A stretch of 64,000 nucleotides of DNA from Longimicrobiales bacterium. Lineage in GTDB: Bacteria; Gemmatimonadota; Gemmatimonadetes; Longimicrobiales; Gaopeijiaceae. The notes beneath the pieces are model-generated. The model was not told the DNA's origin and ran no database searches. It saw nothing but the letters and a program-made list of their open reading frames with translations. Position 1 is the stretch's first letter, and each line of letters opens with the position of its first letter. Of this stretch, positions 23,924-36,862 are shown in pieces. Position numbers and translations under genes: made by a program. The stretch spans positions 256,001-320,000 of the forward strand of contig OZ250165.1 of the NCBI GenBank assembly GCA_965238005.1. The letters run 5' to 3'.

Positions 23924-24203
23924 AGGCGTCTGCCTCGCCCCCCCGGGGGGAGGGGCCCCAAAGGGGGGGGTGCACGGCAGCGCCGGGTTCCGGGGTCAGA
24001 TGCTTTACATAATCGCCATTATGCGTAGCCTGGGTTGTGCCGTAAGTTAATGCAGGACAGTCATTTACCGCTCGATGCATATTCGTGAGCTCGTCGCTGC
24101 AGGAGAGATGGCGCTCGAGTATGCACCTCGGTTGTGTAGTTATGAACTGCCGATCTCCGCGCCGTGTCTCACGCGCGCGAGGACTGTCACAGCGAGGGCG
24201 CTG
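23924..24203 (+). repeat. Repeat D1 containing a dif-like site (24002-24029)
   Basis: Minus strand GCTACGCATAA-TGGCGA-TTATGTAAAGC; the downstream block ending GTGTCTCACGCGCGCGAGGACTGTCAC recurs at about 26.5, 30.1 and 35.1 kb. Confidence 0.8.
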
Positions 24204-24244
24204 CAGGCGACCTCAAATCCTCTCAGGTCAGACACTAACCACAC

Positions 24245-26395
24245 CTACCGGGGACCGGGCGGCAGGTGCGTGAGCAGATACCGTGTTATGTGCATACGCA
24301 AGTGCAGCGATGTGCCTTCGCCTTCGCTGATTCCGTGGTCGCGGTTAGGGTACGTCATATAATCAAACTGCTTCCCCAACTCGATGAGGCGATCAACCAA
24401 TCCCTCGGTGATCTCCAGATGGGTATTGGTCTCTCCCGTGCCATGGATGATCAGGAGGTCTCCCTTGAGGCCCTCGGCAAAATTGATCGGAGCGGATTGG
24501 CGGTATCCCTCGGGGTTCTCCTCGGGCGTCCGCATGAAAATCTCCTGGAAAGATCCATGGTAGAGGTCCGGTTGCGGCTTGGGCGCAACGGCGATCCCTA
24601 CGTGATAAACATCCGGCTTGCGGAACATGGCATTAAGGGTGTTTGAACCACCGCCGCTCCAACCCCATATACCGACCCGGGACATGTCGACGTACGGCCG
24701 GGTACGGCCAAGTTCCTGCACACCTGCCGCCTGCTCCTCGGTGGAGAGTGGGCCAAGGCTAGGGAATATCGCCCGCCGCCATGCGGCCCCCTTCGGCGCA
24801 GGTGTACCACGGCCGTCAATGGACACCACAAGATAGCCTAAATCGGCGATCACGCGATGGTAGTTGATGTTGGTGTGGATGATGTTCCACGAGTCCAACA
24901 CCTTCTGACGGGCCGGCTCACCATATATATACACGAAAAGGGGATATTTTCGGGACGGATCGAAGTCGTGAGGTTTGATCATCCATGCGTCCATCACCAC
25001 GTTGTCGCCGATATCGAGTTGAATAAACTCTGTGGGCCGGGAAACCAATGTCTCCATTTTAGCGCGCAGCTCATTATTGTCTTCCAGAACGCGAACCATC
25101 CGGTGCTCCGGCATCTCCACGAGTTCGGTGACCGGAGGTGTGTCAAAGTTGGAGTAGGTGTGAAACGCCCATCTGTAGTCAGGGGAGAAGTCGTAATCGT
25201 GGAAGCCTGGCCGGTCCGTGGGGGTAATCCGTTCGGTTTCTCCGCTCCCGCTCAGCGGCACGCGATAAAGATACTTCTGGGTAGCGTTGTCAGGGGATGC
25301 ATAATAGTAAATCCAGCCTCCACCTTCATCCACCATGCCATGTTCAATATTTCTACCACGCTCCGTCTGATGGAAGCCCTTACTCAAAATAATATCGACG
25401 CCGCCGGGCGTTAATACCGCTTGCTCCTTTCCATCGCGCGAGTAAACATAGGCTCGGCGCCAGCCATCCTTTTCGCTCAATACGATGAACGCACTGCCAC
25501 CACGGATCCACTTCAGCCCGCCATTCCCTCGGCTGCCCAGAACCCATGCCGAATCGGATTCGTGGTAGATACTGGTGACCTGGCCGGTCTGGGCGTTACC
25601 AATCAGAAAGTCACGTTCATCCCTGCCGCGGCTAAACTTTTCTACCAATACCTCGTCTGAATTCTCAGCCCAACTCACCTGCCCGAGATAATAACCCTCT
25701 GCAGACGCCGGAATGGAGAGCCAGCGCGTGTTGCCTCCCGTAGCATCAACGACGCCAACGCGCAAGGTTGCAATGGTCTCGCCTACCCTGGCATACCGGA
25801 CTGCTCTAACCTCCGGATACGTTGGATCACCCGGGACGAGCGTCGGCCTCAGCCGGACATTGGACTGGTCCCTCTGCACATAAGCAATCCGCTTTCCATC
25901 GGGACTCCAGACCGCGTTACCATTCGAAATCGCGTCAGCGGTCCCGTCCTCCGTAATTTGAATCGTCCGGTTCCTGCGGATATCCCGAACAAACAGGTTC
26001 CCTTGATCGGTGTAAAGGCTGCGCTGGCCGTCGGGGGAAACGCTGCCTCTCATTTCTCTTTGTAGTGACTCCGGCACACTGCGTTCGCCGCTGACGACAT
26101 CATAACGTGCACGTACACGTTCGTTCGTTCCCGAATCAAGCTCCATTACTGTGTAACCAGAACCGTCAGCAAGCCAGGTTGCATTAGAGGTCCTGGCATC
26201 GAACTCATTCCGCTCGAAAATCGCCCGCAGACGTGCTTCGGCTTCAGCCGGGACTACGTCCTGATTATTCGAAGGCTTTTTTTCTACTGTTTCCTGACAA
26301 CCGATTACCAGAAGGGCAAAGGCGAGTACTAACCCAATCCCAATCAGATGCCGGAGTAAAGCTTTTAATGCGTTTAGTGTTAACATGGTAGTCAT
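24245..26395 (-). CDS. S9 family dipeptidyl peptidase IV-like lipoprotein
   Basis: Lipobox LVIGC, GWSGGG nucleophile, YPNRDH, beta-propeller SPDG repeats. Confidence 0.93.
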   Translation of the reverse strand: MTTMLTLNALKALLRHLIGIGLVLAFALLVIGCQETVEKKPSNNQDVVPAEAEARLRAIFERNEFDARTSNATWLADGSGYTVMELDSGTNERVRARYDVVSGERSVPESLQREMRGSVSPDGQRSLYTDQGNLFVRDIRRNRTIQITEDGTADAISNGNAVWSPDGKRIAYVQRDQSNVRLRPTLVPGDPTYPEVRAVRYARVGETIATLRVGVVDATGGNTRWLSIPASAEGYYLGQVSWAENSDEVLVEKFSRGRDERDFLIGNAQTGQVTSIYHESDSAWVLGSRGNGGLKWIRGGSAFIVLSEKDGWRRAYVYSRDGKEQAVLTPGGVDIILSKGFHQTERGRNIEHGMVDEGGGWIYYYASPDNATQKYLYRVPLSGSGETERITPTDRPGFHDYDFSPDYRWAFHTYSNFDTPPVTELVEMPEHRMVRVLEDNNELRAKMETLVSRPTEFIQLDIGDNVVMDAWMIKPHDFDPSRKYPLFVYIYGEPARQKVLDSWNIIHTNINYHRVIADLGYLVVSIDGRGTPAPKGAAWRRAIFPSLGPLSTEEQAAGVQELGRTRPYVDMSRVGIWGWSGGGSNTLNAMFRKPDVYHVGIAVAPKPQPDLYHGSFQEIFMRTPEENPEGYRQSAPINFAEGLKGDLLIIHGTGETNTHLEITEGLVDRLIELGKQFDYMTYPNRDHGISEGEGTSLHLRMHITRYLLTHLPPGPR

Positions 26396-26541
26396 TGGTT
26401 AAAGTATTTTGGTTGCTTAGTTGTTGTTAAAGAATTGATAATCCAATTTAGTCAAGATAGCAGATTATTTCTGGTCCGAAACCAAGGAAAAAATACTGAT
26501 TTTCAAAGGATAGGAGATTCTATCGCGTTCGCGAGGAGCAG

Positions 26542-26597
26542 TGCCGATCCCCGGGGCGTGTCTCACGTGCGCGAGGACTGTCACGGCGGGGGCGCTG
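26542..26597 (+). repeat. Repeat D2 (3' part only)
   Basis: TGCCGATCCCCGGGGCGTGTCTCACGTGCGCGAGGACTGTCACGGCGGGGGCGCTG. Confidence 0.75.
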
Positions 26598-26686
26598 ATG
26601 CCACCGCGGACGCGTCTTGAAAGACGCACAGTGATGCCCCTTGATGCCTCCTGATGCCCCCCGATGCCCCGATGCCTTTGTGCCCC

Positions 26687-29600
26687 CTAATGGTTAGACT
26701 GCACGTCCGTCGCAACCCCAACCGACAACTCGTGCAGGCCCACAACGAGCGATCCGGGCCCCTGTATCAACACCGCGGTGTATGGCGCACGTCCCGTCGC
26801 GTGCTCGGCATCGGAGATCCACGCATGCGCCGTAGCCGTCCACTCGGCGCCAAAGGCTCGCTCTTCAGAAACGTCTGTGAGCGCAACCATGCCGTACGAG
26901 GGATTGAACACGACATCCATGTACTCGTACGTCGTGCTTCCACTAGGCACGGCCGGAGCATCGATAAAGACCTTCCAGGTCCCGGCCGCCGGGTTGCGCA
27001 CCATGACGAATTCATCGCCAATACGATCCGCATCGCCACCCCCACTCCTGCACCGTTTCTCTGTGCAATTGTAGACGTAGACATCGATGTCTGCATCTTG
27101 CTGCGACGGCCTTGCCTTGACGATGAGGAACGGTGAACCCTTTGGTACTTCGATTTCGAACACTTGCTGTTCGTTCTGTCGAATCGTCGGACGTTCGTGG
27201 CGCACACTGCCCACAGGCGTGCTCACCGCGTTGCCGGTGAACGACGCCATCCGATTGGCGAGGGTCAGGTAGTAGGTTGCGCTGCCGGGTTGCATGAGAT
27301 CGCCGGCCTCGCCGCCATTCGCTGCGGTCAGCTCGGTGTGCAGCGCGGATACCGTCAGCGTCGCCGACGTCGGCGGCACTGGGTCGTCCTCCTTGGCCTG
27401 CTCCCAGTCCCAGGTGCGCGTGTCGTACGTGTCGGATAACCTGATCTCCCACATCCCCGGCATGGGATCGACAACCACATTTGTCGCGCTCTCCCCGGCG
27501 GCACCCGGACTGGATACGCCGCGCTGCGAACGTGTGTCGGGACGAATCACCGCGAGGCCGACTTGTCGCTCCGGCGCGCTCAGATCGATCTTGAGAGCGG
27601 TCACGCCTTCGTCGACGCGGTAGAAAAAACTCTGCATTCCGGGTCGTGGGACTTTTGTTTCCTTCTTAACGGTGAAGCTGTCCGCAACCGTGAACCGGTC
27701 CGCGGCGACAACGGTTGTGAGCATACGATACGCGTAACCCGGGACACTCGGATGATCGAGCGTGAGCAGCGCAGTGTGCACACCCGCGGTGGCCGGCGCC
27801 ACGCCGATGTTCATCGCCACCGGCGTGTTGAGGGGAAGCATGAGGGACGACGGCGCCGAGTACGTCACGCTGTCGTTGCCCGTCCAGCTCACGTTGAACG
27901 TCATCGAACCCCTTGGTCCGGACGTCCGTGTGAACGTGATCGCGCGCTCATCGCGGTCGCCGACGTTCCACCCGTCGCGCTCGTAGAGTCCCACGCCTTC
28001 GTTCGGCGTCGGCAGCATGTCGCTATAAACCGTACGTACCGATGCGCTGCTGGTGATGGCGATCTCCTCGGTCTCCCTGTCGAGCGCCTTCAGAATCTCC
28101 CAGGCGTATGCCACGTTGATGACGCCGTTGCCCTGCTTATACGCCGGAATGTGCGGCACGTAGCGCGCAGATCTCGTGATCGCGTGCTTGAGACGGAAGG
28201 CGTCGTACTGCACTCCCTCCTGTTTGGCCGCGCTGATCAACAACGCCACCGCGCCCGCGGCCGTGGGCGTCGCGGTCGACGCACCCCCGGCGATGGTGTA
28301 ACCCGGAGGTAGCTGGAAAGTGGCAAACCTCAGACCCTCGAGGTACCCACGGGACGTGCTCACGTAATTCGACGGCGAGATCACGTCGGGCTTGAGCGCG
28401 CCGTTGCCCATCGGGCCGTACCCGCCGGTGATGAGCAGGTTGTCTTGATGCTCGACACGCACGCCGTGATTGGCGAAGAAGTTGTCTTTACTCTCGTGCC
28501 CGCTGACACCGATTGCACCGCGTGCCAGTACCAAATCATCGATGGCGCCGAGTATCGGGTAGTTGTGCGTTGGCACGAGGAGCGGCTTCTTGTACTTGTC
28601 GATGAGCCGAGTGTAGATCACCGTCGGCACGAGGCGTCCGTCGCGCAACAGATAGGAGCGCGTGATGCCGGACCACTGCTCGAGGAACGCGATGTCGATG
28701 ATCGGGTTCTTCAGGGCCTCGATCACCGCCTCGGTCTGTCCGTACGAGGCGCCGCTCTCGGAGATGCTCGCGAGCCGTGCTCCGGGCGCAACGCCGTCGA
28801 AGCGTCCCTTCTCCCCGCGGCTCGCCACCGCCGCGCCGACCACCAACGACCCGTGACCGTCAATACCCATGTTCAACGCAACGCGCTTCTTGTCTCGATC
28901 GATTTGCACACCAAACCCAACCGACTCGCGTACCGGCGTCTCCGGATTGTCGGTTCCAAAGACACCAAACTCTCGGCGGTCGTTGTAATTGGTCAGCCTT
29001 TTCTCATCGGTGAAGCTCAGGTCCTGGTCGGTATCGACCCAGACATCATTCGACCCCTCGTCCCAGATCACACCAAACAACCGACTCGAACCCTCGGGAT
29101 TCTCATCGCGGTTGACGTCCCCATCCAGCCCTCCACGAGCCACCGAATCGAAACTTGCCTCATCGAGGATGGCAATGCGGAACGTGCCGTTGTGGGGTGC
29201 CGTGTATGTCGTGCTGTCGAATTCGAAACTTCCACCGGCGGCAGTCACGGTTTCGTCCATGCGTAACCACCGACCGTCGTTTTGCTCGTCGAGGTCGATA
29301 GCGGTCTGGTACACGACGATCTTGGGCGTCGGCCTCCCGTCGAGCGTCATCGCGACCTGTAACTCAGGAAGTAGCATGTCGGGGTTGTGGTCGATCATCG
29401 CGATCGTCACCCCACGGCCGTCGAACGTTGGATTCTGCTCGAGAAAAGCCTTCGCGCCAATGTCGGCAATCGGACTGTAGCGGTTCCGAAGGGGAAGGTC
29501 CGAGAGCAGTGGCGGCCAGGGTTCTTTCGCGGTCGTGTCCTGAACCACTCTTCGGGTGGTGCCGGAGCGCGTGTCCACCGTCTCCCCGTCTCCGGAGCCA

Positions 29601-29944
29601 CCCCGTCCGAGGTTCTGCGGTTTGGAGATGTCGATGCTATGCAGCGCGGGATCTCCCTCCAGACGCTCCACACTGTCCACCGGAACAAACGCGCGGATGT
29701 AGTCCACGTCGTCGTCCCGATATCGGATGGTGCCGCCGAGGGCGGTGATGATCCGGGCGAGCGTCGCGTTCGCGCCGGGCATGGCAGCCGCCACCACGGT
29801 GACACCGCTGTCGCCACGGGCCCGCGCGGAGGCCACCTCGACGCGGCCGTCCTTAAAGAGGAAAGGGCGGCGGGCCACCTGGGCGGAGAGGCTGGGGGCG
29901 GCGAGGATCGATGAGAGGATGAGGAGTACGGGGGCGCGTTTCAT
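26687..29944 (-). CDS. Secreted S8 subtilase (tripeptidyl-peptidase II-like)
   Basis: Signal peptide; DGRGVTIAMID, DGHGS, LKPDV and GGASTATP (catalytic Ser). Confidence 0.88.
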   Translation of the reverse strand: MKRAPVLLILSSILAAPSLSAQVARRPFLFKDGRVEVASARARGDSGVTVVAAAMPGANATLARIITALGGTIRYRDDDVDYIRAFVPVDSVERLEGDPALHSIDISKPQNLGRGGSGDGETVDTRSGTTRRVVQDTTAKEPWPPLLSDLPLRNRYSPIADIGAKAFLEQNPTFDGRGVTIAMIDHNPDMLLPELQVAMTLDGRPTPKIVVYQTAIDLDEQNDGRWLRMDETVTAAGGSFEFDSTTYTAPHNGTFRIAILDEASFDSVARGGLDGDVNRDENPEGSSRLFGVIWDEGSNDVWVDTDQDLSFTDEKRLTNYNDRREFGVFGTDNPETPVRESVGFGVQIDRDKKRVALNMGIDGHGSLVVGAAVASRGEKGRFDGVAPGARLASISESGASYGQTEAVIEALKNPIIDIAFLEQWSGITRSYLLRDGRLVPTVIYTRLIDKYKKPLLVPTHNYPILGAIDDLVLARGAIGVSGHESKDNFFANHGVRVEHQDNLLITGGYGPMGNGALKPDVISPSNYVSTSRGYLEGLRFATFQLPPGYTIAGGASTATPTAAGAVALLISAAKQEGVQYDAFRLKHAITRSARYVPHIPAYKQGNGVINVAYAWEILKALDRETEEIAITSSASVRTVYSDMLPTPNEGVGLYERDGWNVGDRDERAITFTRTSGPRGSMTFNVSWTGNDSVTYSAPSSLMLPLNTPVAMNIGVAPATAGVHTALLTLDHPSVPGYAYRMLTTVVAADRFTVADSFTVKKETKVPRPGMQSFFYRVDEGVTALKIDLSAPERQVGLAVIRPDTRSQRGVSSPGAAGESATNVVVDPMPGMWEIRLSDTYDTRTWDWEQAKEDDPVPPTSATLTVSALHTELTAANGGEAGDLMQPGSATYYLTLANRMASFTGNAVSTPVGSVRHERPTIRQNEQQVFEIEVPKGSPFLIVKARPSQQDADIDVYVYNCTEKRCRSGGGDADRIGDEFVMVRNPAAGTWKVFIDAPAVPSGSTTYEYMDVVFNPSYGMVALTDVSEERAFGAEWTATAHAWISDAEHATGRAPYTAVLIQGPGSLVVGLHELSVGVATDVQSNH

Positions 29945-30126
29945 GGCATACCTCAGGGGTGGGGCGTTGTAGCTAGTGGGTTTTAGAATACGGGTGGATG
30001 CGGGGGATGGCTAGGAACGGCGGGGCACGGGGGCATGGGCGCATGGGCGCATCGAGGGGCATCAGCATCAGGGTACATCAAAGGGGCATTCCTGAATGAT
30101 CAACTTGGGCGATGCCGCTTGATGCC

Positions 30127-30317
30127 TCCTGATGTAATTGCCATTATGCGCAGCCTGTGCAGCGCCGTAAGTGGATGCAGGACTGTCATTTACATCTCAG
30201 CGCATATTCATGAGCTCGTCGCTGCATGAGGGATGGCGCTGGAGTATGCAACTCGGCCGTGTAGTTATCGATCTGCCGATCCGGCGAGTGTCTCACGCGT
30301 GCGCGACGACTGTCACC
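30127..30317 (+). repeat. Repeat D3 with a degenerate dif-like site (30127-30154)
   Basis: Minus strand GCTGCGCATAA-TGGCAA-TTACATCAGGA; the following ~160 bp align with D1. Confidence 0.8.
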
Positions 30318-30489
30318 GGCTTGGTCAGCCAACCCCCTCAAGGTTGCGGATGCGATGCTCGATCAGGGGGTCGTCTAGTACCACGCTGATACGTTCTAGG
30401 GCGGGTCACCGTTGGCGGGCGTGGCCCGCCCCTTTGCCACTCGCTATTCTTGCTCCCCTTTGGAGAACCGATGGAATAGCGAGGCGACC

Positions 30490-32007
30490 ATGCGCGCACG
30501 TCCCCTTCTTGAACGCGTCCCCACGCGACAGACCTTGATTGCCCCCGTCACCGTCACCTTGGCCGCGCTCAGCCTCAGCGTGACCCCCGCAACCGCCCAA
30601 ACCTACGACGCCTTGACCCCCCAGGTCCGCGAGTTCGTGAGCGTGGGTGGACCTCTCATCGCGCTCACCCACGTCCAGGTCATCGACGGCACGGGCTCTG
30701 CGCCCGCACAGGATCAGACGGTCCTGATCGCCGACGGCCGCGTTGAAGCCGTGGGTCGAACGGGTGATGTGGCCGTCCCGTCCGGCGCCGAAGTGCACGA
30801 CCTGACCGGGCACACGGTCATCCCCGGCATCGTCGGACTGCACAACCACACGTTCTATCGAGGAGTTCGTGGAACCGCGGGCGAAACGACGGCTCAACTC
30901 GACGTGTCGTCTCCGCGACTCTACCTGGCCAATGGGGTGACCACGATTCGCACTACGGGGAGTATCTCTCCCTACAGCGAGTTGAATGTGAAGCACCAGA
31001 TCGATTCTGGTGAGACGCCTGGCCCCCGGATGTACGTGACGGGCCCCTACTTCGACGGTGAGGGTGCAACGGTGTCGCGCTATCAGCCGGCATCGCCGGA
31101 GGACGCCAAGCGCGTGGTCCGGTATTGGATCGAAGAGGGCGTCACCTGGTTCAAAGCCTACGCGAACATCAAGGGTGAGAACCTCAAGGCCATCATCGAC
31201 GAGGCGCACCGCCTGGGAGCGAAGGTCACGGGCCACCTGTGCTCCGTGACGTTCGGCGAGGCGATGGAGCTCGAGATCGACAACCTGGAGCACGGCTTCC
31301 TCACCGCGAGCGACTTCGAGGCCGATAAGCCACAGGACGTCTGCCCTCCGGGATTCATCCAGCGACTCGCGGACGTCGACGTCGAGGGTCCGGAAGCTCA
31401 GGATCTGATTCAGGATCTGGTCCGGTCGGGCACACCCATCACCTCGACCCTCTCCGCGTACGAATTCAGCTTCGTACCGGGTGGGAGGCCTATCGAAGAT
31501 CGGGTGCTGGAGATGATGCCGACCGAGTTGGCCGAGTGGTACGTCGTTGCCCATCAAGCGCTTATCGAGCGTGAGCGCGAGTTCCGGGCCGACCCCGACG
31601 TCGGTGAGGACGATCCTTGGCCGTTCGCTCAAGTGTTCCGCAACGCGCAGGCCTTCGAGCGTTCGTTCGTCGAGCAGGGTGGACTGCTCGTTGCGGGCAC
31701 CGATCCGTGCTGTCCCGTGCTCCCGGGATTCGGTGATCAGCGCAACTTCGAGCTGCTCTCCTCGTCGGGGTTCTCACCGTCGCAAGTCGTCCAGATCATG
31801 TCGGCGAACGGCGCGCGGGTCCTCGACGGCCAGGACTCGTTCGGCACGGTGACCCCGGGTAAGCGTGCCGACCTCGTGGTCATCGAGGGAGATCTGACGA
31901 GCGATCCGGTGGTGATCCAGAACGTCCGGATCGTCTTCAAGGAAGGCGTGGGATACGATCCCGAGAAGCTGCTGGCGTCGGTGCGGGGGACGGTCGGACT
32001 GCGGTAG
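30490..32007 (+). CDS. Amidohydrolase family protein (secreted)
   Basis: PGIVGLHNH, GVTTIRTTG, TGH, EHG, AGTD and GKRADLVV motifs. Confidence 0.92.
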   Translation: MRARPLLERVPTRQTLIAPVTVTLAALSLSVTPATAQTYDALTPQVREFVSVGGPLIALTHVQVIDGTGSAPAQDQTVLIADGRVEAVGRTGDVAVPSGAEVHDLTGHTVIPGIVGLHNHTFYRGVRGTAGETTAQLDVSSPRLYLANGVTTIRTTGSISPYSELNVKHQIDSGETPGPRMYVTGPYFDGEGATVSRYQPASPEDAKRVVRYWIEEGVTWFKAYANIKGENLKAIIDEAHRLGAKVTGHLCSVTFGEAMELEIDNLEHGFLTASDFEADKPQDVCPPGFIQRLADVDVEGPEAQDLIQDLVRSGTPITSTLSAYEFSFVPGGRPIEDRVLEMMPTELAEWYVVAHQALIEREREFRADPDVGEDDPWPFAQVFRNAQAFERSFVEQGGLLVAGTDPCCPVLPGFGDQRNFELLSSSGFSPSQVVQIMSANGARVLDGQDSFGTVTPGKRADLVVIEGDLTSDPVVIQNVRIVFKEGVGYDPEKLLASVRGTVGLR

Positions 32008-32042
32008 CGATCATCGGCAACGTAAGAGGAGGAGCAACACCG

Positions 32043-32165
32043 TTGGCTTCGGACACGTTCAGAATCGCGGCCGTGCAGGCCGCCTCGGTCTTCTTGGATC
32101 TGGAGGCGACAGTCGACAAGGCCTGCCGGTTGATCCGGGAAGCGGCGGAGGGGGGCGCCACTACG
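32043..32165 (+). pseudogene. Nitrilase (carbon-nitrogen hydrolase) N-terminal remnant
   Basis: GAGGAGGAG RBS; MASDTFRIAAVQAASVFLDLEATVDKACRLIREAAEGGA, then breaks off into the repeat. Confidence 0.75.
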
Positions 32166-32179
32166 GATAGGGAATCCGA

Positions 32180-32460
32180 ACACCCTTTTGGAGTTCGGCA
32201 CCCAGCTTGAGCGAGGCGAGACCCTCGCCTTGCGAGGCACGACCCCAGGGCAACGTGCGCGCTTGCCGTCCGGCCATGCAAGGACGAGACGATCGGATGC
32301 GTGGATGGGCAACGGGTGAGACCATCTAGCGACGGGTTCCGAAGCGCCTGTGCGGAAACCGACGACCCCTGATGGCAGGGGGTGATGTTCCACTGCTCCT
32401 TCGTCCTTCCCACGGTCGGGCGCGGCCCTTAGATACGGGAGCAGGAGCTCGTCGGTCCGC
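32180..32460. repeat. Deleted copy of the tRNA-Pro-proximal element (homologous to 36955-37206 and 37415-37440)
   Basis: Shared GGATGCGTGGATGGGCAACGG...CGACGGGTTCCGAAGCGCCTGT.CGGAAACCGACGACCCCTGATGGCAGGGGGTG, and an LLLPYLRAA-coding stretch. Confidence 0.85.
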
Positions 32461-32471
32461 ATCCGGACCGC

Positions 32472-32500
32472 TTCGAACCGGCGACCCCCTGAACCCCATT
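32472..32500 (-). other. att direct repeat: 29-bp copy of part of tRNA-Pro
   Basis: TTCGAACCGGCGACCCCCTGAACCCCATT is identical to 38240-38268. Confidence 0.88.
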
Positions 32501-32854
32501 ACTAACAGCTTATACGCCATATCACGGGAGATACCTGGTTCCATGTGGGTTTCGGAGAAAAGTTTCCCGGAGTCGGGATCCTGGATTCCCTGGATCAATG
32601 GGGGTCAGGTATTGGAGAAGGTATTGGAGTGCGGCTCTCCGGGGACTCAATCACCTAGTCCGTGTTGCACTTCAAAGTTGATCCTGAGTGGCGGCCCCAA
32701 GACCTACGAACTAAGGAACTCAGTGATCTCGGACCGCCACTCTGCCAGTGGAAGACTGTGCGACACGTGCCTCGCCCGGCCAGGTTGGTGCGGTAACGTT
32801 ACAAAGGTTCTTAGAACCACGTTTTCCACAGCCGGTCCAGCTGATATGAACTGC

Positions 32855-34924
32855 CTATTTGCTTCTCTCGTTGGAGTTCATTATGACCGGCATTCCGAAC
32901 CTCCATGTGCTCCAAAGCTCTGCGTTCTCGACGAGCTCAATCATGAAGTGAGCGACATTGGCTCGGGCGGTAGGGCGGCCAGTGAAGATACCGGTGGTGG
33001 GGGACTGTTCTATGTTATACGAAGAAATCTCAGCGTCGACCAACGAGTCGGGGCGGACGCTGCACCACTCAACGTGTTGACTCTCCTTCCCCACGTTCTG
33101 ATGGAGATGTTCTGCCGCAGTTTCATTATCCCGATGTGGAGGCAGGGTGTGGCGCAGGAGAGCCAAGAGCCATCGCTCAAACCAGGCTCTCTTCTCTTCG
33201 AGGTCGGGATTCTGGACCCCAACCGTGCTCATGAGGATGAATTTGGTAGGTTTGGTGGGGCGATTCTCTTCGATTGCATCACACAAGCGTTGCGTCGCGT
33301 CTGTGCATAGCCCTTTGGGTTCTCCAAACATCCCCTTTAGATCCATGACATGTCCCAAGCACGAGACCACGGCATCACAATCCTTTACATGCTCTGCCAT
33401 CTCCTCATCAGTTAAGTCGAGCACACTCGCTTTAGCGCCCCCGGTTTCTCTGGACAGTAGATTGGCAAAGAGAGCGGGTCCAGAGAGAAAGGGACGTGAT
33501 GGCCCAGAAGCCGAGGGAAAAGAAGGCGACCGAAGGTCGTGAGAAGGTACCCGAGCGGTGGAGCGCACAGCATAAGACGGAGGTGGTGCTGCGCCTGCTG
33601 CGGGGGGAGGATCTGGTGGAGGTCAGCCGCGAGGTGCAGGTCTCACCACCGGAGTTGGAGGAATGGCGGCGGGTGTTTCTGGAGACCGGTCAGCAGGGGC
33701 TGAGGCGCCGGGGCCGGGACCCTGGAGAACGAGAGCTGACCCGGACCCAGGCGAAGCTGGGAGAGTTGACGATGCGACTGGAGCTTGCGAGAGAGCTCCT
33801 GGAAAAAAGGGGGTACGGGGACGAGCTACGGACGCTCTTGAAGCGTGGACGCGAGTGAGTCCGGGGACCGGGCGGCCCTACCCTCTGACGATGATCTGCG
33901 AGGCCTGGCGGGTGGGGCGCTCGACGGTCTATGCGGCCCGGGATCGAGAAGAGAGCGAGGGGCCGGCAGAGCCGAAGAAACGAGGACCGAAGACGAAGCT
34001 GAGCGACGAGGAGTTGGTAGAGGAGATCCGACAGGTGCTGAAGCAGAGCGACTTCCTGGGCGAGGGTCATCGAAAGGTGAGGGCGCGCCTGAGGCCGAAG
34101 GGGATCCATGTGGGCAAGAACCGCGTGCTCAGGCTGATGCGGGAGAATGGGCTGCTGGCCCCTGTACGACGCGGGAAGCATCCGCATGGGGACCGGAGCC
34201 ACAGTGGCCGGATCACGACGGACGTGCCGAACGAGCTGTGGGGCACGGACGCGACGCGGTTCTACACGAAGGAGGATGGGTGGTGCTGGTTTTTCGTGGC
34301 GGTGGATCACTGCGTCACGGACGTGGTGGGCTGGCACGTGGCGAAGAAGGGCGATCGGTGGGCAGCGCTCGAGCCGATCCGCCAGGGCGTACGGACCCAC
34401 ATGGACGACTACGCGCCCAAGATCGCTCTGGGGCTCGGCCTACGGCACGACTGGGGACCGCAGTACACGGCGCATCAGTTCCAGGGGGAGCTGGCCTGGC
34501 TCGGGATCCGCTCGACGGCCTCGTACGTGGGAGAGCCGGAGTGCAACGGCGTCGCAGAGCGCTTCATGCGGACGCTGAAGGAGGAGTGCTTGTACCTCCA
34601 CGACTTCAAGAGTCTCGAGGAGGCCAGACAGGAGATCGACGCGTTTATCGAACGCTACAACCGCGGGTGGCTCCTAGAGCGGCATGGGTATCGGACCCCG
34701 GCCCAGGTCCGTCAGGAGCTCACCCTGAAGGCGGCTTGATTAGGCCGCCGACTTGTCCAGCAAACCGGAACCTCTATGACTGTCGCGTTTGGGTGATCCC
34801 GAACCTTCGCGGGGAGTTTGCGAGGCGAGCGGACAATAGCGCGAACTTTCTGACCCTTGCTTAGCAACTGCTCCACTAGGGCCCGCCCCGTCATACCTGT
34901 CGCTCCAACCACTAGTACCGTCAT
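32855..34924 (-). pseudogene. NAD(P)H-binding (BVR-B/atypical SDR-like) protein interrupted by IS3 copy 2
   Basis: N-part MTVLVVGATGMTG...PNATVIE (34924-34775) continues as ASVLDLTDEEM...CDAVVSCLG (33430-32855). Confidence 0.88.
33431..34778 (+). mobile_element. IS3-family element copy 2 (orfA 33499-33858, orfB ending at 34739)
   Basis: Same translations as copy 1, inverted orientation; A6G slippery run near 33803 in the orfA/orfB overlap. Confidence 0.9.
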
Positions 34925-34989
34925 CGATGGTGTCCTGCTCCTGTCCGTGTCTCAGGGGCGGCTTGTGGGTCCGGCTCATCTCTCACGCT

Positions 34990-35088
34990 GCCTAACGTCT
35001 CGCACTTCTGCTGCGGCCAAGATGGTGATCGCAAGCATATCACGCAGACCCTCTAGTCTACAGCGACCGCAGCCATCGCCTGTTAGAC
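34990..35088 (-). other. Integron attC-like site
   Basis: Minus strand GTCTAAC-AGGCG-ATGGCTGCGG ... CCGCAGCAGAA-GTGCGAGAC-GTTAGGC: R''/L''/L'/R' layout, 99 bp. Confidence 0.7.
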
Positions 35089-35143
35089 CGCTCAGCGAAG
35101 GGCGGAATTTATTACACTCGTCATCGGACCCACACGGGGAGCT

Positions 35144-35316
35144 GGCGTCTGCCTCGCCCCCGGGGGGAGGGGCCCCAGAAGGGGGGGGGCGACCGGCAAT
35201 GCCCGGTAGCGGGAGAGATGGCGATCGAGTATGCAGCCCGGCCGTGTAGATATCGATCCGCCGATCTCCGGGGGCGTGTCTCACGCGTGCGCGAGGACTG
35301 TCACGGCGGAGCGCTG
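35144..35316 (+). repeat. Repeat D4 (dif segment deleted)
   Basis: GGCGTCTGCCTCGCCCCCGGGGGGAGGGGCCCCA (as at the D1 5' end) joined to GAGAGATGGCG...GTGTCTCACGCGTGCGCGAGGACTGTCAC. Confidence 0.8.
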
Positions 35317-35365
35317 CCGCATATTCGCGACTGGGAGGCGGCCCTCCGCTCGCGGGCCTTTCAGG

Positions 35366-36862
35366 CTAGCGGCTCCGCAACCGGGCATTCTCCCGATGTG
35401 GAGCGTAGAAGACCTCTTCGTGTCGGCCGTCGACGCGTGGATCGCCGGTACGGCGCAACTCGGCGTCCAGCTCTGTCGCGAGAGCGTCCCGGACCGAGGC
35501 GTACGCTGCTACTCCGGCAACGTTGTTGAGCTGGTAGGGGTCTGTGGCGAGATCGTAGAGTTCCTCCGGTGGCCGGGCGCCGACGATCCTCTGGTACATG
35601 TCGGACTCGTGATCGAGCGCCTGTACTGAGATCCACGTCGGTGAGTATCCTCCCTCTGATTCCCAGTAGCTGGCGCAGACATTGATCGGCCGTTCGGGCT
35701 CGTAGTTGCGCACGAAGAGATATTCGGAGGTGCGGATGGCGCGCATCGGATAACGACCACAGTGCAGCTCGATGGAGGAAAAAGCGCGCGTTCGACTGGT
35801 GTCGAGTAATCCCGAGTCCGGGGATTCGAGCGCGGCGAGAACGCTGCGGCCACTCATGGCCTCCGGAGGTTCGACGCCGGCCGCCTCGAGAAATGTGGGG
35901 GCCATGTCGGAGAACCTGACAAAGTCCTCCACGACCCTTCCGCTACCCGCGTGCTCCGGCCAGCGTACGACGAGGGGAACCCGGGTGCCGAGATCATAGA
36001 GGGTCATCTTGGCGCGCGGGAACGGCATACCGTTGTCACCGGTCATGACGACGATGGTGTTGTCGAGCTCGCCGATCGCTTCGAGGTGGGCGATCAGTTG
36101 GGATGCGGCGGAATCGAACATCTCGACCTCGTAGTAGTAGTCGGCCAAGTCGGTTCGGGTCTCCTCGGTATCGGGCAGGGTAGGCGGCACGACGACGTCT
36201 TCCAGGCTCATGCCTCTCCGCAGGCCGGATTGCCATTCGTACGGTCGATGTGGCTCGCCGGTGTTGAACCAGAAGTGAAACGGCTGCCTGTCTTCTCGGC
36301 GCGCCAGGAAATCCTCGAACGTCGCGACCCGATCGCGGGAGTCCCAGGCGCGGCCCGGAGGATCACCGACGACGATCCTTCCGGCCGGGTTGTCTTCGCG
36401 TCCGGTCTCGACGAGATAGCCAGGCCCCCATCCCTTGCCGGAGTATCCGACGAGGTACCCCGCCCCTTCGAGCAGGTCCGTATACGTTTCGAACTTCGCC
36501 GGCAGCGCGCCCCACAGGTGCACACCAGTTTCGAGCATCCACGGGTGCATGCCGGTTAGCAGCGCGGCGCGTGACGGTGTGCACGACGGGGAGTCGACAA
36601 AGGCGTTGCTGAACCGGACCCCTTCGGCGGCGATGCGATCGAGGGTCGGGGTCCGGAGATTCGGATCAGACACGTTCTCCGACTGAGGCCAATTCCAATC
36701 GTCGGCCATGAGGATCAGGATGTTCGGTGGGCGCTCGGGTTCCTCGGTTGGCTCCGGAGCGCGGCCGCACGCGAGTCCCAGAACAGCGAGGCTCAACAGT
36801 GGGAGGGCCGAGTGGCTGCGACATCGTCCTACTGTGTTCCAGAACATGCCCGTTACCTCCAT
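35366..36862 (-). CDS. Sulfatase (lipoprotein)
   Basis: Lipobox GLAC, PNILILMADD, CTPSRAALLTG, EPHRPY and GDNG motifs. Confidence 0.94.
   Translation of the reverse strand: MEVTGMFWNTVGRCRSHSALPLLSLAVLGLACGRAPEPTEEPERPPNILILMADDWNWPQSENVSDPNLRTPTLDRIAAEGVRFSNAFVDSPSCTPSRAALLTGMHPWMLETGVHLWGALPAKFETYTDLLEGAGYLVGYSGKGWGPGYLVETGREDNPAGRIVVGDPPGRAWDSRDRVATFEDFLARREDRQPFHFWFNTGEPHRPYEWQSGLRRGMSLEDVVVPPTLPDTEETRTDLADYYYEVEMFDSAASQLIAHLEAIGELDNTIVVMTGDNGMPFPRAKMTLYDLGTRVPLVVRWPEHAGSGRVVEDFVRFSDMAPTFLEAAGVEPPEAMSGRSVLAALESPDSGLLDTSRTRAFSSIELHCGRYPMRAIRTSEYLFVRNYEPERPINVCASYWESEGGYSPTWISVQALDHESDMYQRIVGARPPEELYDLATDPYQLNNVAGVAAYASVRDALATELDAELRRTGDPRVDGRHEEVFYAPHRENARLRSR

Follow-up and report, generated by a model that had tools for sequence, protein, structure and literature searches.

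How did four genes for secreted hydrolases come to stand near each other, each beside a copy of one non-coding repeat that resembles the recombination site dif? The question is raised by a 64,000-nt stretch of DNA (the window; positions in it carry the prefix w) from contig OZ250165.1 of a Longimicrobiales bacterium, whose genome, called G000 here, is a single contig of 4.84 Mb. The preliminary description of the locus read the repeat, which we call element D, as part of a Xer-dependent system that accretes cassettes. Our analysis shows that D is a backbone module of islands and carries a mimic of the host dif, and that the array is made of island-derived units with their cargo beside D. With somewhat more than even confidence we lean to the explanation that these islands were phage-satellite-like and mobilised by an integrase, that the window holds an eroded pile of them, and that the core of D would be a cer/psi-like site for the host XerCD recombinases.

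Copies and layout of element D

A repeat search over w22000-38000 found related repeats at w24148-24190, 26542-26584, 30274-30316 and 35262-35304, together with the longer pairs w24010-24143/30135-30268 and w23925-23994/35144-35213. BLASTN of the first copy, D1, against the whole of G000 gave eight matches, which make up six copies of D: four in the window and two elsewhere, E5 and E6. They lie at 280, 282, 286, 291, 371 and 4464 kb of G000. The four co-oriented non-coding copies first noticed in the window are confirmed by both searches, except that D3 had been started 8 nt too early, at 30127. The copies and their parts are as follows.

w23924-24203, plus strand: D1, full copy, with the G/C-run block at 23924-23994, the core at 24002-24029 and the accessory region at 24030-24203
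w24002-24029, minus strand (dif orientation): dif-like core of D1, consisting of XerC arm, 6-nt spacer TGGCGA and XerD arm
w26542-26597, plus strand: D2, the final 56 nt of the element only (repeat search, BLASTN)
w30135-30317, plus strand: D3, truncated at its 5' end and starting within the core (repeat search, BLASTN)
w30128-30155: core remnant of D3, XerC arm and spacer TGGCAA kept, XerD arm diverged
w35144-35316, plus strand: D4, G/C-run block fused to the 3' ~100 nt, the core and about 110 nt being deleted
G000 4463828-4464104, minus strand: E5, full copy (BLASTN)
G000 4463769-4463808: second, mini copy at E5, core-less, after the full copy
G000 371490-371701, minus strand: E6, without the G/C block (BLASTN)

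The pairwise identity among the D copies is 82-91%, whereas two insertion sequence (IS) copies of the IS3 family in the window are identical to each other. All D copies have a 3' motif in common and finish at the same end point, ...GCTG; in D1 it coincides with the place where homology to the neighbouring S9 peptidase module begins in the same-genus genome G058, which confirms it. The 5' ends are ragged. On the XerC side of the core, a flank of ~170 bp is 82-88% conserved among D1, D3, E5 and E6, so that the conserved accessory region proposed earlier is upheld. An intact 11-6-11 site is present in D1, E5 and E6; counted by locus, an intact core is kept in one of the four window copies and in one of the two copies at E5.

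The accessory region holds only repeated palindrome-like motifs, namely GACWGTC twice and CATGAATATCC. D as a structured RNA was rejected: with RNAalifold on D1, D3, E5 and E6, compensatory changes supported 0 of 42 minus-strand pairs and 1 of 53 plus-strand pairs. At E<=1, the Rfam matches of w20000-40000 were limited to two tRNAs and a weak one at the tRNA-Ala locus, RF04354, which with 25 bits is below its gathering score of 65.7. Hairpin z-scores of the G/C block relative to shuffles were -0.07 to -1.19, so that its folding does not stand out, and the promoter and terminator scans gave counts no higher than those of shuffles (3 vs 3.4 and 10 vs 8.7, respectively). Integron cassette arrays are characterised by attC sites and an IntI integrase with attI. 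The array studied here differs from them, since a structured repeat is not supported and the only integrase in the array region is one fragment of the general phage-integrase family (Pfam).

The core of D mimics the host dif

The pattern ATAA-N6-TTAT occurs at only 15 places in G000. The best of them, at G000 1876885, has a palindromic all-A/T spacer and coincides with the maximum of the cumulative GC skew (1.87 Mb); the window is about 1.6 Mb away from it. The site is kept with its flanks, in single copy, in G058 and G103, both of the same genus, and G303 has one similar site. On these sequence grounds the site at 1876885 is the chromosomal dif, and the idea that D itself might be dif falls away. 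The genes on both sides of it are ordinary as judged by eye, with no phage or integrase gene among the six flanking open reading frames (ORFs).

We scored each core by its matches to the 22 arm positions of the host dif. E5 scores 19/22, D1 17/22 and E6 16/22. In three shuffled genomes there was no site scoring 18 or more, one scoring 17 and five scoring 16, and hence the dif likeness of the D cores is not due to chance. The XerD arm is nearly invariant among the D copies and the XerC arm less so. In D1 the XerD arm agrees with that of the host at 10 of 11 positions and in D3 at 6 of 11, which matches the first reading of an 11-6-11 site in D1 and a degenerate one in D3. The spacers of the four D cores (TGGCGA, TGGCAA, TAGGGA and TGGTTG) are all different, while their flanks are 82-88% identical. 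G000 encodes a XerD at 1847042 (TIGR02225, 347 bits, above the cut-off) and a second Xer-type, XerC-like gene at 2140782, with 307 bits to TIGR02224, below the cut-off of that profile.

Could the core be an attachment site by which islands or phages integrate into the chromosomal dif with the help of XerCD, the present copies being relocated relics? Integrative mobile elements exploiting Xer (IMEX), such as CTXphi, VGJphi, TLCphi and the gonococcal genetic island, are likewise mobile elements with a mimic of the host dif, and some with one degenerate arm are known, according to the passages of PMC5357621 on these elements. The XerD arm of D, near-identical to that of the host, would suit such a role. 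However, G000 has six extra dif-like sites and none is near dif, the nearest being 156 kb away; the dif flanks are ordinary genes; and at most two of three spacer letters on either side are shared with the host spacer. From copy to copy, sequence is conserved on either side of the core, which is therefore no junction between element and chromosome. IMEX sit at dif, flanked by dif or hybrid sites, and mostly lack an integrase, whereas the D islands described below are found at tRNA-Pro, the one at E5 with its own 411-aa integrase, and have the core inside. We regard this reading as very improbable.

G000 also contains a second family of dif mimics that is unrelated to D, at 79076, 1360020 and 1721245, with scores of 19-21/22. 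Its consensus is CGTRCSTATAA-N6-TTATGTMAAGT, and the homology extends from the XerC arm to ~200 nt past the XerD arm, into a repeat with 12 matches (query included). The site at 1721245 is 0.7 kb from an integrase fragment beside tRNA-Pro(tgg).

An island at E5 and probable decayed islands in the window

The surroundings of E5 tell to what kind of element D belongs. From a second genomic copy of tRNA-Pro(ggg), at G000 4455173-4455247, the order is: a 411-aa tyrosine integrase, a small ORF, a PriCT_2/AAA_25 primase-helicase, a 379-aa helix-turn-helix (HTH)-like gene, an AlbA_2/HATPase_c_4 gene interrupted by an IS481-type element, the mini D, the full D and a gene like the small terminase TerS, about 120-200 nt downstream of D. 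The family scores of the TerS-like protein are weak (PF20901, 2.7e-6; phrog_1482, 4.3e-6), and it is 30% identical (E 9e-13) to a TerS that stands directly before the large terminase (TerL), portal, scaffold and major head genes on a phage contig of G303. No structural family, such as capsid or portal, and no large-terminase family was found among the ORFs scanned in G000 4455274-4474896 (18 ORFs with Pfam, 7 with PHROGs; the 640-aa ORF 4466258-4468180 was outside the scan). With its full D next to a TerS-like gene, E5 bears out an alternative already considered in the preliminary description, i.e. decayed repeats of a phage or satellite located by packaging genes.

The window has the following other features around the D copies.

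w21647-21720, minus strand: tRNA-Ala(tgc), left limit of the accessory stretch (ARAGORN, Rfam)
w21788-22420, minus strand: tyrosine integrase, C-terminal fragment cut by IS copy 1 (Pfam PF00589, tblastn)
w22430-23764, minus strand: IS3-family IS copy 1 with rve transposase, a 1335-nt 100% inverted repeat with copy 2 (Pfam)
w23802-23852: fragment like the 3' half of tRNA-Lys(ttt), ~70 nt before D1, 87.5% identical to G000 3680701-3680748 (BLASTN, tRNA list)
w24245-26395, minus strand: S9/DPPIV-type peptidase with lipoprotein-like leader (Pfam)
w26687-29944, minus strand: S8 subtilase-family protein, 1085 aa, with signal peptide (Pfam)
w30490-32007, plus strand: amidohydrolase (Pfam); its ORF opens at w30412, and the likely start is the Met at w30490, followed by a signal peptide
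w32165-32411, plus strand: copy A of a dispersed repeat, rep (repeat search, BLASTN)
w32413-32454: remnant of the island HTH gene, followed at w32464-32500 by a 37-nt tRNA-Pro fragment (BLASTN)
w32855-34924, minus strand: NmrA-like NAD(P)-binding gene, cleanly split by IS3 copy 2, with profile positions 1-44 and 45-183 on either side (Pfam)
w33438-34772: IS3 copy 2, inverted relative to copy 1, 1335 nt, 100% identical
w35366-36862, minus strand: sulfatase with lipoprotein-like leader (Pfam)
w36941-37195, plus strand: rep copy B (repeat search, BLASTN)
w37251-38196, minus strand: frameshifted homologue of the HTH-like gene of the E5 island (BLASTN, 79% DNA identity; tblastn, two high-scoring pairs in different frames)
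w38225-38299, minus strand: tRNA-Pro(ggg), integration target (ARAGORN, BLASTN)

At this tRNA-Pro the HTH homologue abuts the tRNA directly, and the 4.2 kb with the integrase and the primase are missing. Going leftward, one unit reads NmrA-like gene (split by IS3 copy 2), D4, sulfatase, rep B, HTH and tRNA-Pro when written from left to right. The adjoining unit reads D3, amidohydrolase, rep A, HTH remnant and a tRNA-Pro attachment (att) fragment, and w32413-32500 is probably the right end of an older island. Two adjacent units thus share one layout, D-cargo-rep-HTH-att. In our reading, islands stood in tandem at tRNA-Pro and the array is what erosion has left of them.

The earlier statement that each D copy is followed by a large secreted hydrolase gene stands in part. 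S9, S8, amidohydrolase and sulfatase genes are indeed there, all four with a signal or lipoprotein-like leader as judged by eye. The S9, S8 and sulfatase genes, however, are on the minus strand and converge on the 3' end of D, with 41, 89 and 49 nt from the stop codon to D, respectively; the amidohydrolase is on the plus strand, its 5' end towards D3.

The rep element is a dispersed repeat of ~165-250 nt starting with GGGATAGGC, and in the window it stands between island cargo and HTH gene. A query spanning copy B has 14 BLASTN matches in G000, its own place included, among them 365516, 1665401, 351277 and 3050128, with many further matches in G058 and G103. Rfam has no match for it; an RNA gene, a miniature inverted-repeat transposable element and an IS end are candidates for its nature.

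The E5 integrase has eight full-length paralogues in G000 with 52-55% identity (331762, 679697, 700139, 714485, 788623, 846964, 2837434 and 4829111), six of them beside a paralogue of the small ORF of E5, which indicates a large family of integrase elements in this genome. Dense tRNA arrays are found at G000 1035994-1037821 (21 genes) and 4451264-4453598 (17 genes), the second being 1.6 kb from the tRNA-Pro of E5.

Cargo junctions, relatives and sequencing runs

Host XerCD could also have built the hydrolase array by inserting circular cassettes at D cores, as in pdif modules or IMEX stacks, which is what the preliminary description proposed. Three features of the window accord with it: the copies are co-oriented with different cargo in between, the dif mimic is real, and the loss of the core in three of the four copies could freeze cassettes in place. 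The junctions tell against it. The homology of the cargo breaks some ~170 bp away from the core, at the distal 3' end of D, while the 5' ends of the copies are ragged. The XerD arm of D3 looks diverged and not swapped, no second site bounding a cassette was found, and the different spacers would hinder exchange between copies. The tRNA-Pro att fragments in two units indicate that entry was by integrase. At E6 the cargo position is occupied by an internally deleted IS, which suggests that insertions are tolerated at this spot and that it is no Xer junction; what had seemed a truncated transposase there is this IS, whose end is 20 nt from D.

Each pdif module lies between two intact sites, which alternate in orientation. 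The D copies are co-oriented, three of the four have no core, and their junctions are away from the core. The likeness to the Acinetobacter pdif and chromosomal dif modules lies in accessory genes between repeated dif-like sites away from the main dif (PMC7399989, PMC12907356).

G058 offers a comparison for two of the cargo genes. The S9 module (w24201-26509) is 95% identical to G058:C1:91344-93605, in another context and with D absent there; the right boundary of this homology at w26509 was discarded as a module end since it is due to an IS insertion in G058. A 43-nt fragment of D is joined to the 3' end of the sulfatase in G058. The 3' 321 nt of the sulfatase are 99% identical, while the adjoining part of D is 86% identical to D4 and matches D3 at 28 of 28 nt. 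The same cargo flank is hence tied to another D allele, so D and cargo were reassorted, as cassette accretion would have it, or D copies convert each other. Another place in G058, with the G/C block and the XerD arm, had the appearance of a Xer-type breakpoint; it turned out that an internal deletion, bounded by short repeats, has rejoined the accessory region there.

Contigs from three sequencing runs confirm the D2-S8-D3 arrangement, one of them 4990 nt long and without differences. Among the contigs of four runs (X18, X19, X20 and X1), no joint from D1 to D2 or from D2 to D3 was found. One joint from D3 to D4 occurs in a single contig of X18, with three extra letters; it is ambiguous, as another D copy or another strain may be its source. 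Apparent joints from tRNA to tRNA have sides of 20 nt and are probably cross-matches. Runs with a small share only were set aside as evidence. Some contigs have an empty site for IS3 copy 2, which makes this insertion recent or polymorphic. With one intact core in four, the cargo junctions at the distal end of D, an orientation unlike that of pdif modules and no joint from D1 to D2 or from D2 to D3, we find cassette accretion by XerCD distinctly improbable.

Dif mimics across the family

Extra dif-like sites occur in other members of the bacterial family as well. A strict dif pattern matched in 171 of 314 family genomes, almost always at a single site whose spacer is all A/T; reversed as a control, the pattern gave one match in the 314 genomes. 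At least two matches were found in 11 genomes, i.e. seven in G000, four in G181, three in G035 and two in each of eight others. The spacers of the extra sites contain G/C. For the counts below, 18 extra sites were taken in and a site in G156 was left out.

A terminase gene is present within 2.5 kb of five of the 18 sites, i.e. E5, G000 1360020, the G303 phage, G181 and G093. The order is HTH, TerS, TerL, site at G000 1360020; integrase, TerS, site in G093; and integrase, site, a 147-aa ORF, TerL in G181. Such neighbours raise the possibility that D is a cos or pac packaging site, or the promoter-operator of a terS operon, of satellites and helper phages, and that its palindrome is bound by a phage or island protein, for example a tyrosine recombinase encoded by the element. 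D lies directly upstream of the TerS-like gene at E5, an integrase gene is beside the site in G181 and G093, and tailed-phage plasmid prophages usually encode XerCD-related recombinases of their own, as stated in passages of PMC8026635. The integrases of G181 and G093 have no BLASTP match at 1e-3 to the XerC, XerD or E5 integrase of G000, a result that speaks neither for nor against them as the enzyme at work.

Other observations count against this role. The arms resemble the host dif far beyond chance, and the minor letter that the host XerD arm has at position 7 in four informative genomes is copied by the extra site in three of them (G035, G303 and G167, not G093). No terminase gene is near 13 of the 18 extra sites. 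The placement relative to terS varies, upstream at E5, in G303 and in G181 and downstream in G093 and at G000 1360020, and the G/C block folds no better than shuffled sequence. A packaging or regulatory role for D is the main rival to our explanation and in our judgement unlikely.

E5 TerS has matches only in G303 and G130 among the 314 family genomes, and no dif-like site scoring 15 or more was found within 20 kb in G130. Compared with viral contigs, the TerL of G303 and the TerS of E5 gave seven pattern matches each, none of which was confirmed.

At the loci L065-L072 of G181, G093, G069 and G086, genomes of other genera, we noticed 12-nt palindromes like GCATGA.TCATGC at offsets of about -106, -70 and +54 from the core. 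Ten of 14 palindrome instances, in six 10-kb loci, are at those offsets, and the whole has the look of a larger recombination site with boxes for accessory proteins. The strict palindrome GYATNNNNATRC is at fixed positions in these four genomes and is absent from the G000 sites, which have degenerate versions only; hence we do not claim that D shares this architecture.

A proposed cer/psi-like module of satellite islands

The accessory DNA of the plasmid sites cer and psi lies on the XerC side of the core, where it is bound by PepA with ArgR or ArcA. D has two 11-nt arms around a 6-nt centre, a flank of ~170 bp on the same side and host Xer genes in the genome. Both cer (ColE1) and psi (pSC101) consist of a dif-like 11-6/8-11 core with a spacer unlike that of dif and roughly 170-180 bp of accessory DNA. 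They rely on the host XerC and XerD, and two copies recombine only if they stand as direct repeats on the same molecule (PMC5357621, PMC9113270, 10.64898/2026.02.23.706985). D differs from them in its setting, i.e. chromosomal island remnants beside terminase genes in a phylum far from Enterobacteriaceae, and in the G/C-run block on the XerD side.

We propose the following scheme. In dif orientation D comprises an accessory region of ~170 bp, the XerC arm, a private 6-nt spacer, the XerD arm and the G/C-run block. Host XerC and XerD would bind the core and resolve multimers of a circular replicating form of the island or phage. The E5 island encodes a primase-helicase and an integrase. The flank may act as accessory DNA that limits recombination to sister copies within one multimer, and the private spacers may keep D copies from recombining with dif or between loci. 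Several islands would have piled up between tRNA-Ala and tRNA-Pro, with hydrolase genes in the cargo slot beside the 3' end of D, and then been eroded by deletions and an IS3 element. As intact direct repeats would delete the DNA between them, arrays of this kind would persist only if all but one core per locus were destroyed.

P4-like and phage-inducible chromosomal island (PICI) satellites combine an integrase and a primase or replication gene with a small terminase, and their cargo varies at a fixed hotspot (PMC9122126, PMC10085698); the D islands may be of a similar kind. Capsid, portal and tail genes are absent from such satellites. The cargo sets the D islands apart, being secreted hydrolases in four of six slots and not defence genes. 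Tailed-phage plasmid prophages are also replicons that need dimer resolution by a tyrosine recombinase; they encode this enzyme themselves according to the same passages of PMC8026635, whereas the D site copies the host dif, which would imply the use of host enzymes.

Several points weigh against this explanation. D is almost private to G000: BLASTN found any match in only three of 201 family genomes, G000 included, and the other two have fragments, those in G058 and a 42-nt match to the G/C run in G019. The pattern of the D 3' end had no match in genome contigs and none in metagenome contigs. The conservation of the accessory region is therefore seen only among G000 copies. The right end of the E5 island was searched for and not found, so that D with TerS and the integrase are not proven to belong to one element; a 13-mer shared by the tRNA-Pro flank and G000 4471020 was rejected as the island end, as it is inside an uninterrupted gene that has a paralogue. 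In D1-S9-D2-S8 the origin from decayed islands is inferred, D being the sole island marker there. Both 5' truncations end within the 280-bp D, which is somewhat unexpected for random deletions. Three of the six extra sites in G000 differ from the host XerD arm at position 7. An integrated satellite has no evident need for multimer resolution unless it replicates as a circle, and no circular form was seen among the run contigs compared with the window.

A different use of the same site by XerCD can be imagined. If the cores are live, modules of core and accessory region might be family-wide mobile Xer sites for circular forms of tailed phages and satellites. Stacks would then arise away from dif, when circles that carry D recombine with a D copy already in place, and their cargo would be fixed once the extra cores were destroyed. 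We consider this improbable.

Other features near the array

Arrays of the 10-nt unit GATGCCNCNT, a GATGCC decamer, are present on both sides of the S8 gene, at w26623-26680, w30029-30072 (inverted) and w30111-30134. The flanking 24-mers w26633-26656 and w30111-30134 are 96% identical direct repeats, and the right one abuts the truncated core of D3. The arrays could serve to bind a protein, or they could mark where a small unit was inserted. The identical, inverted IS3 copies bracket 9.7 kb, from D1 to the NmrA-like gene, in the manner of a composite transposon. Left of tRNA-Ala, w10003-21358 looks accessory too. It encodes a DDE transposase and a trypsin-like peptidase together with SIR2_2-domain, HTH and DUF4365 proteins, and may represent an island of the defence type.

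Significance

Known users of the host Xer machinery are plasmids, phages of the filamentous and tailless kinds and a small number of islands; the literature searched adds microvirus-type phages and the chromosomal dif modules of Acinetobacter. A search at the level of titles and passages found no published report of it for tRNA-integrating satellites or tailed phages of Gemmatimonadota, and no dif mimic in P4-like or PICI-type satellites turned up in the literature search. If our explanation is true, a mimic of the host dif in tRNA-integrating, TerS-bearing satellites and beside tailed-phage terminases, in a phylum that has been little studied, would widen the range of replicons that borrow XerCD. 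A dif-like core with a private, G/C-containing spacer would then be a signature by which such phages and satellites could be recognised in metagenomes. Stacking by live cores, if it occurs, would be a chromosomal counterpart, away from the terminus, of pdif and IMEX stacking that spreads nutrient-scavenging enzymes. For the organism itself, the array shows how genes for secreted hydrolases can arrive and stay as satellite cargo.

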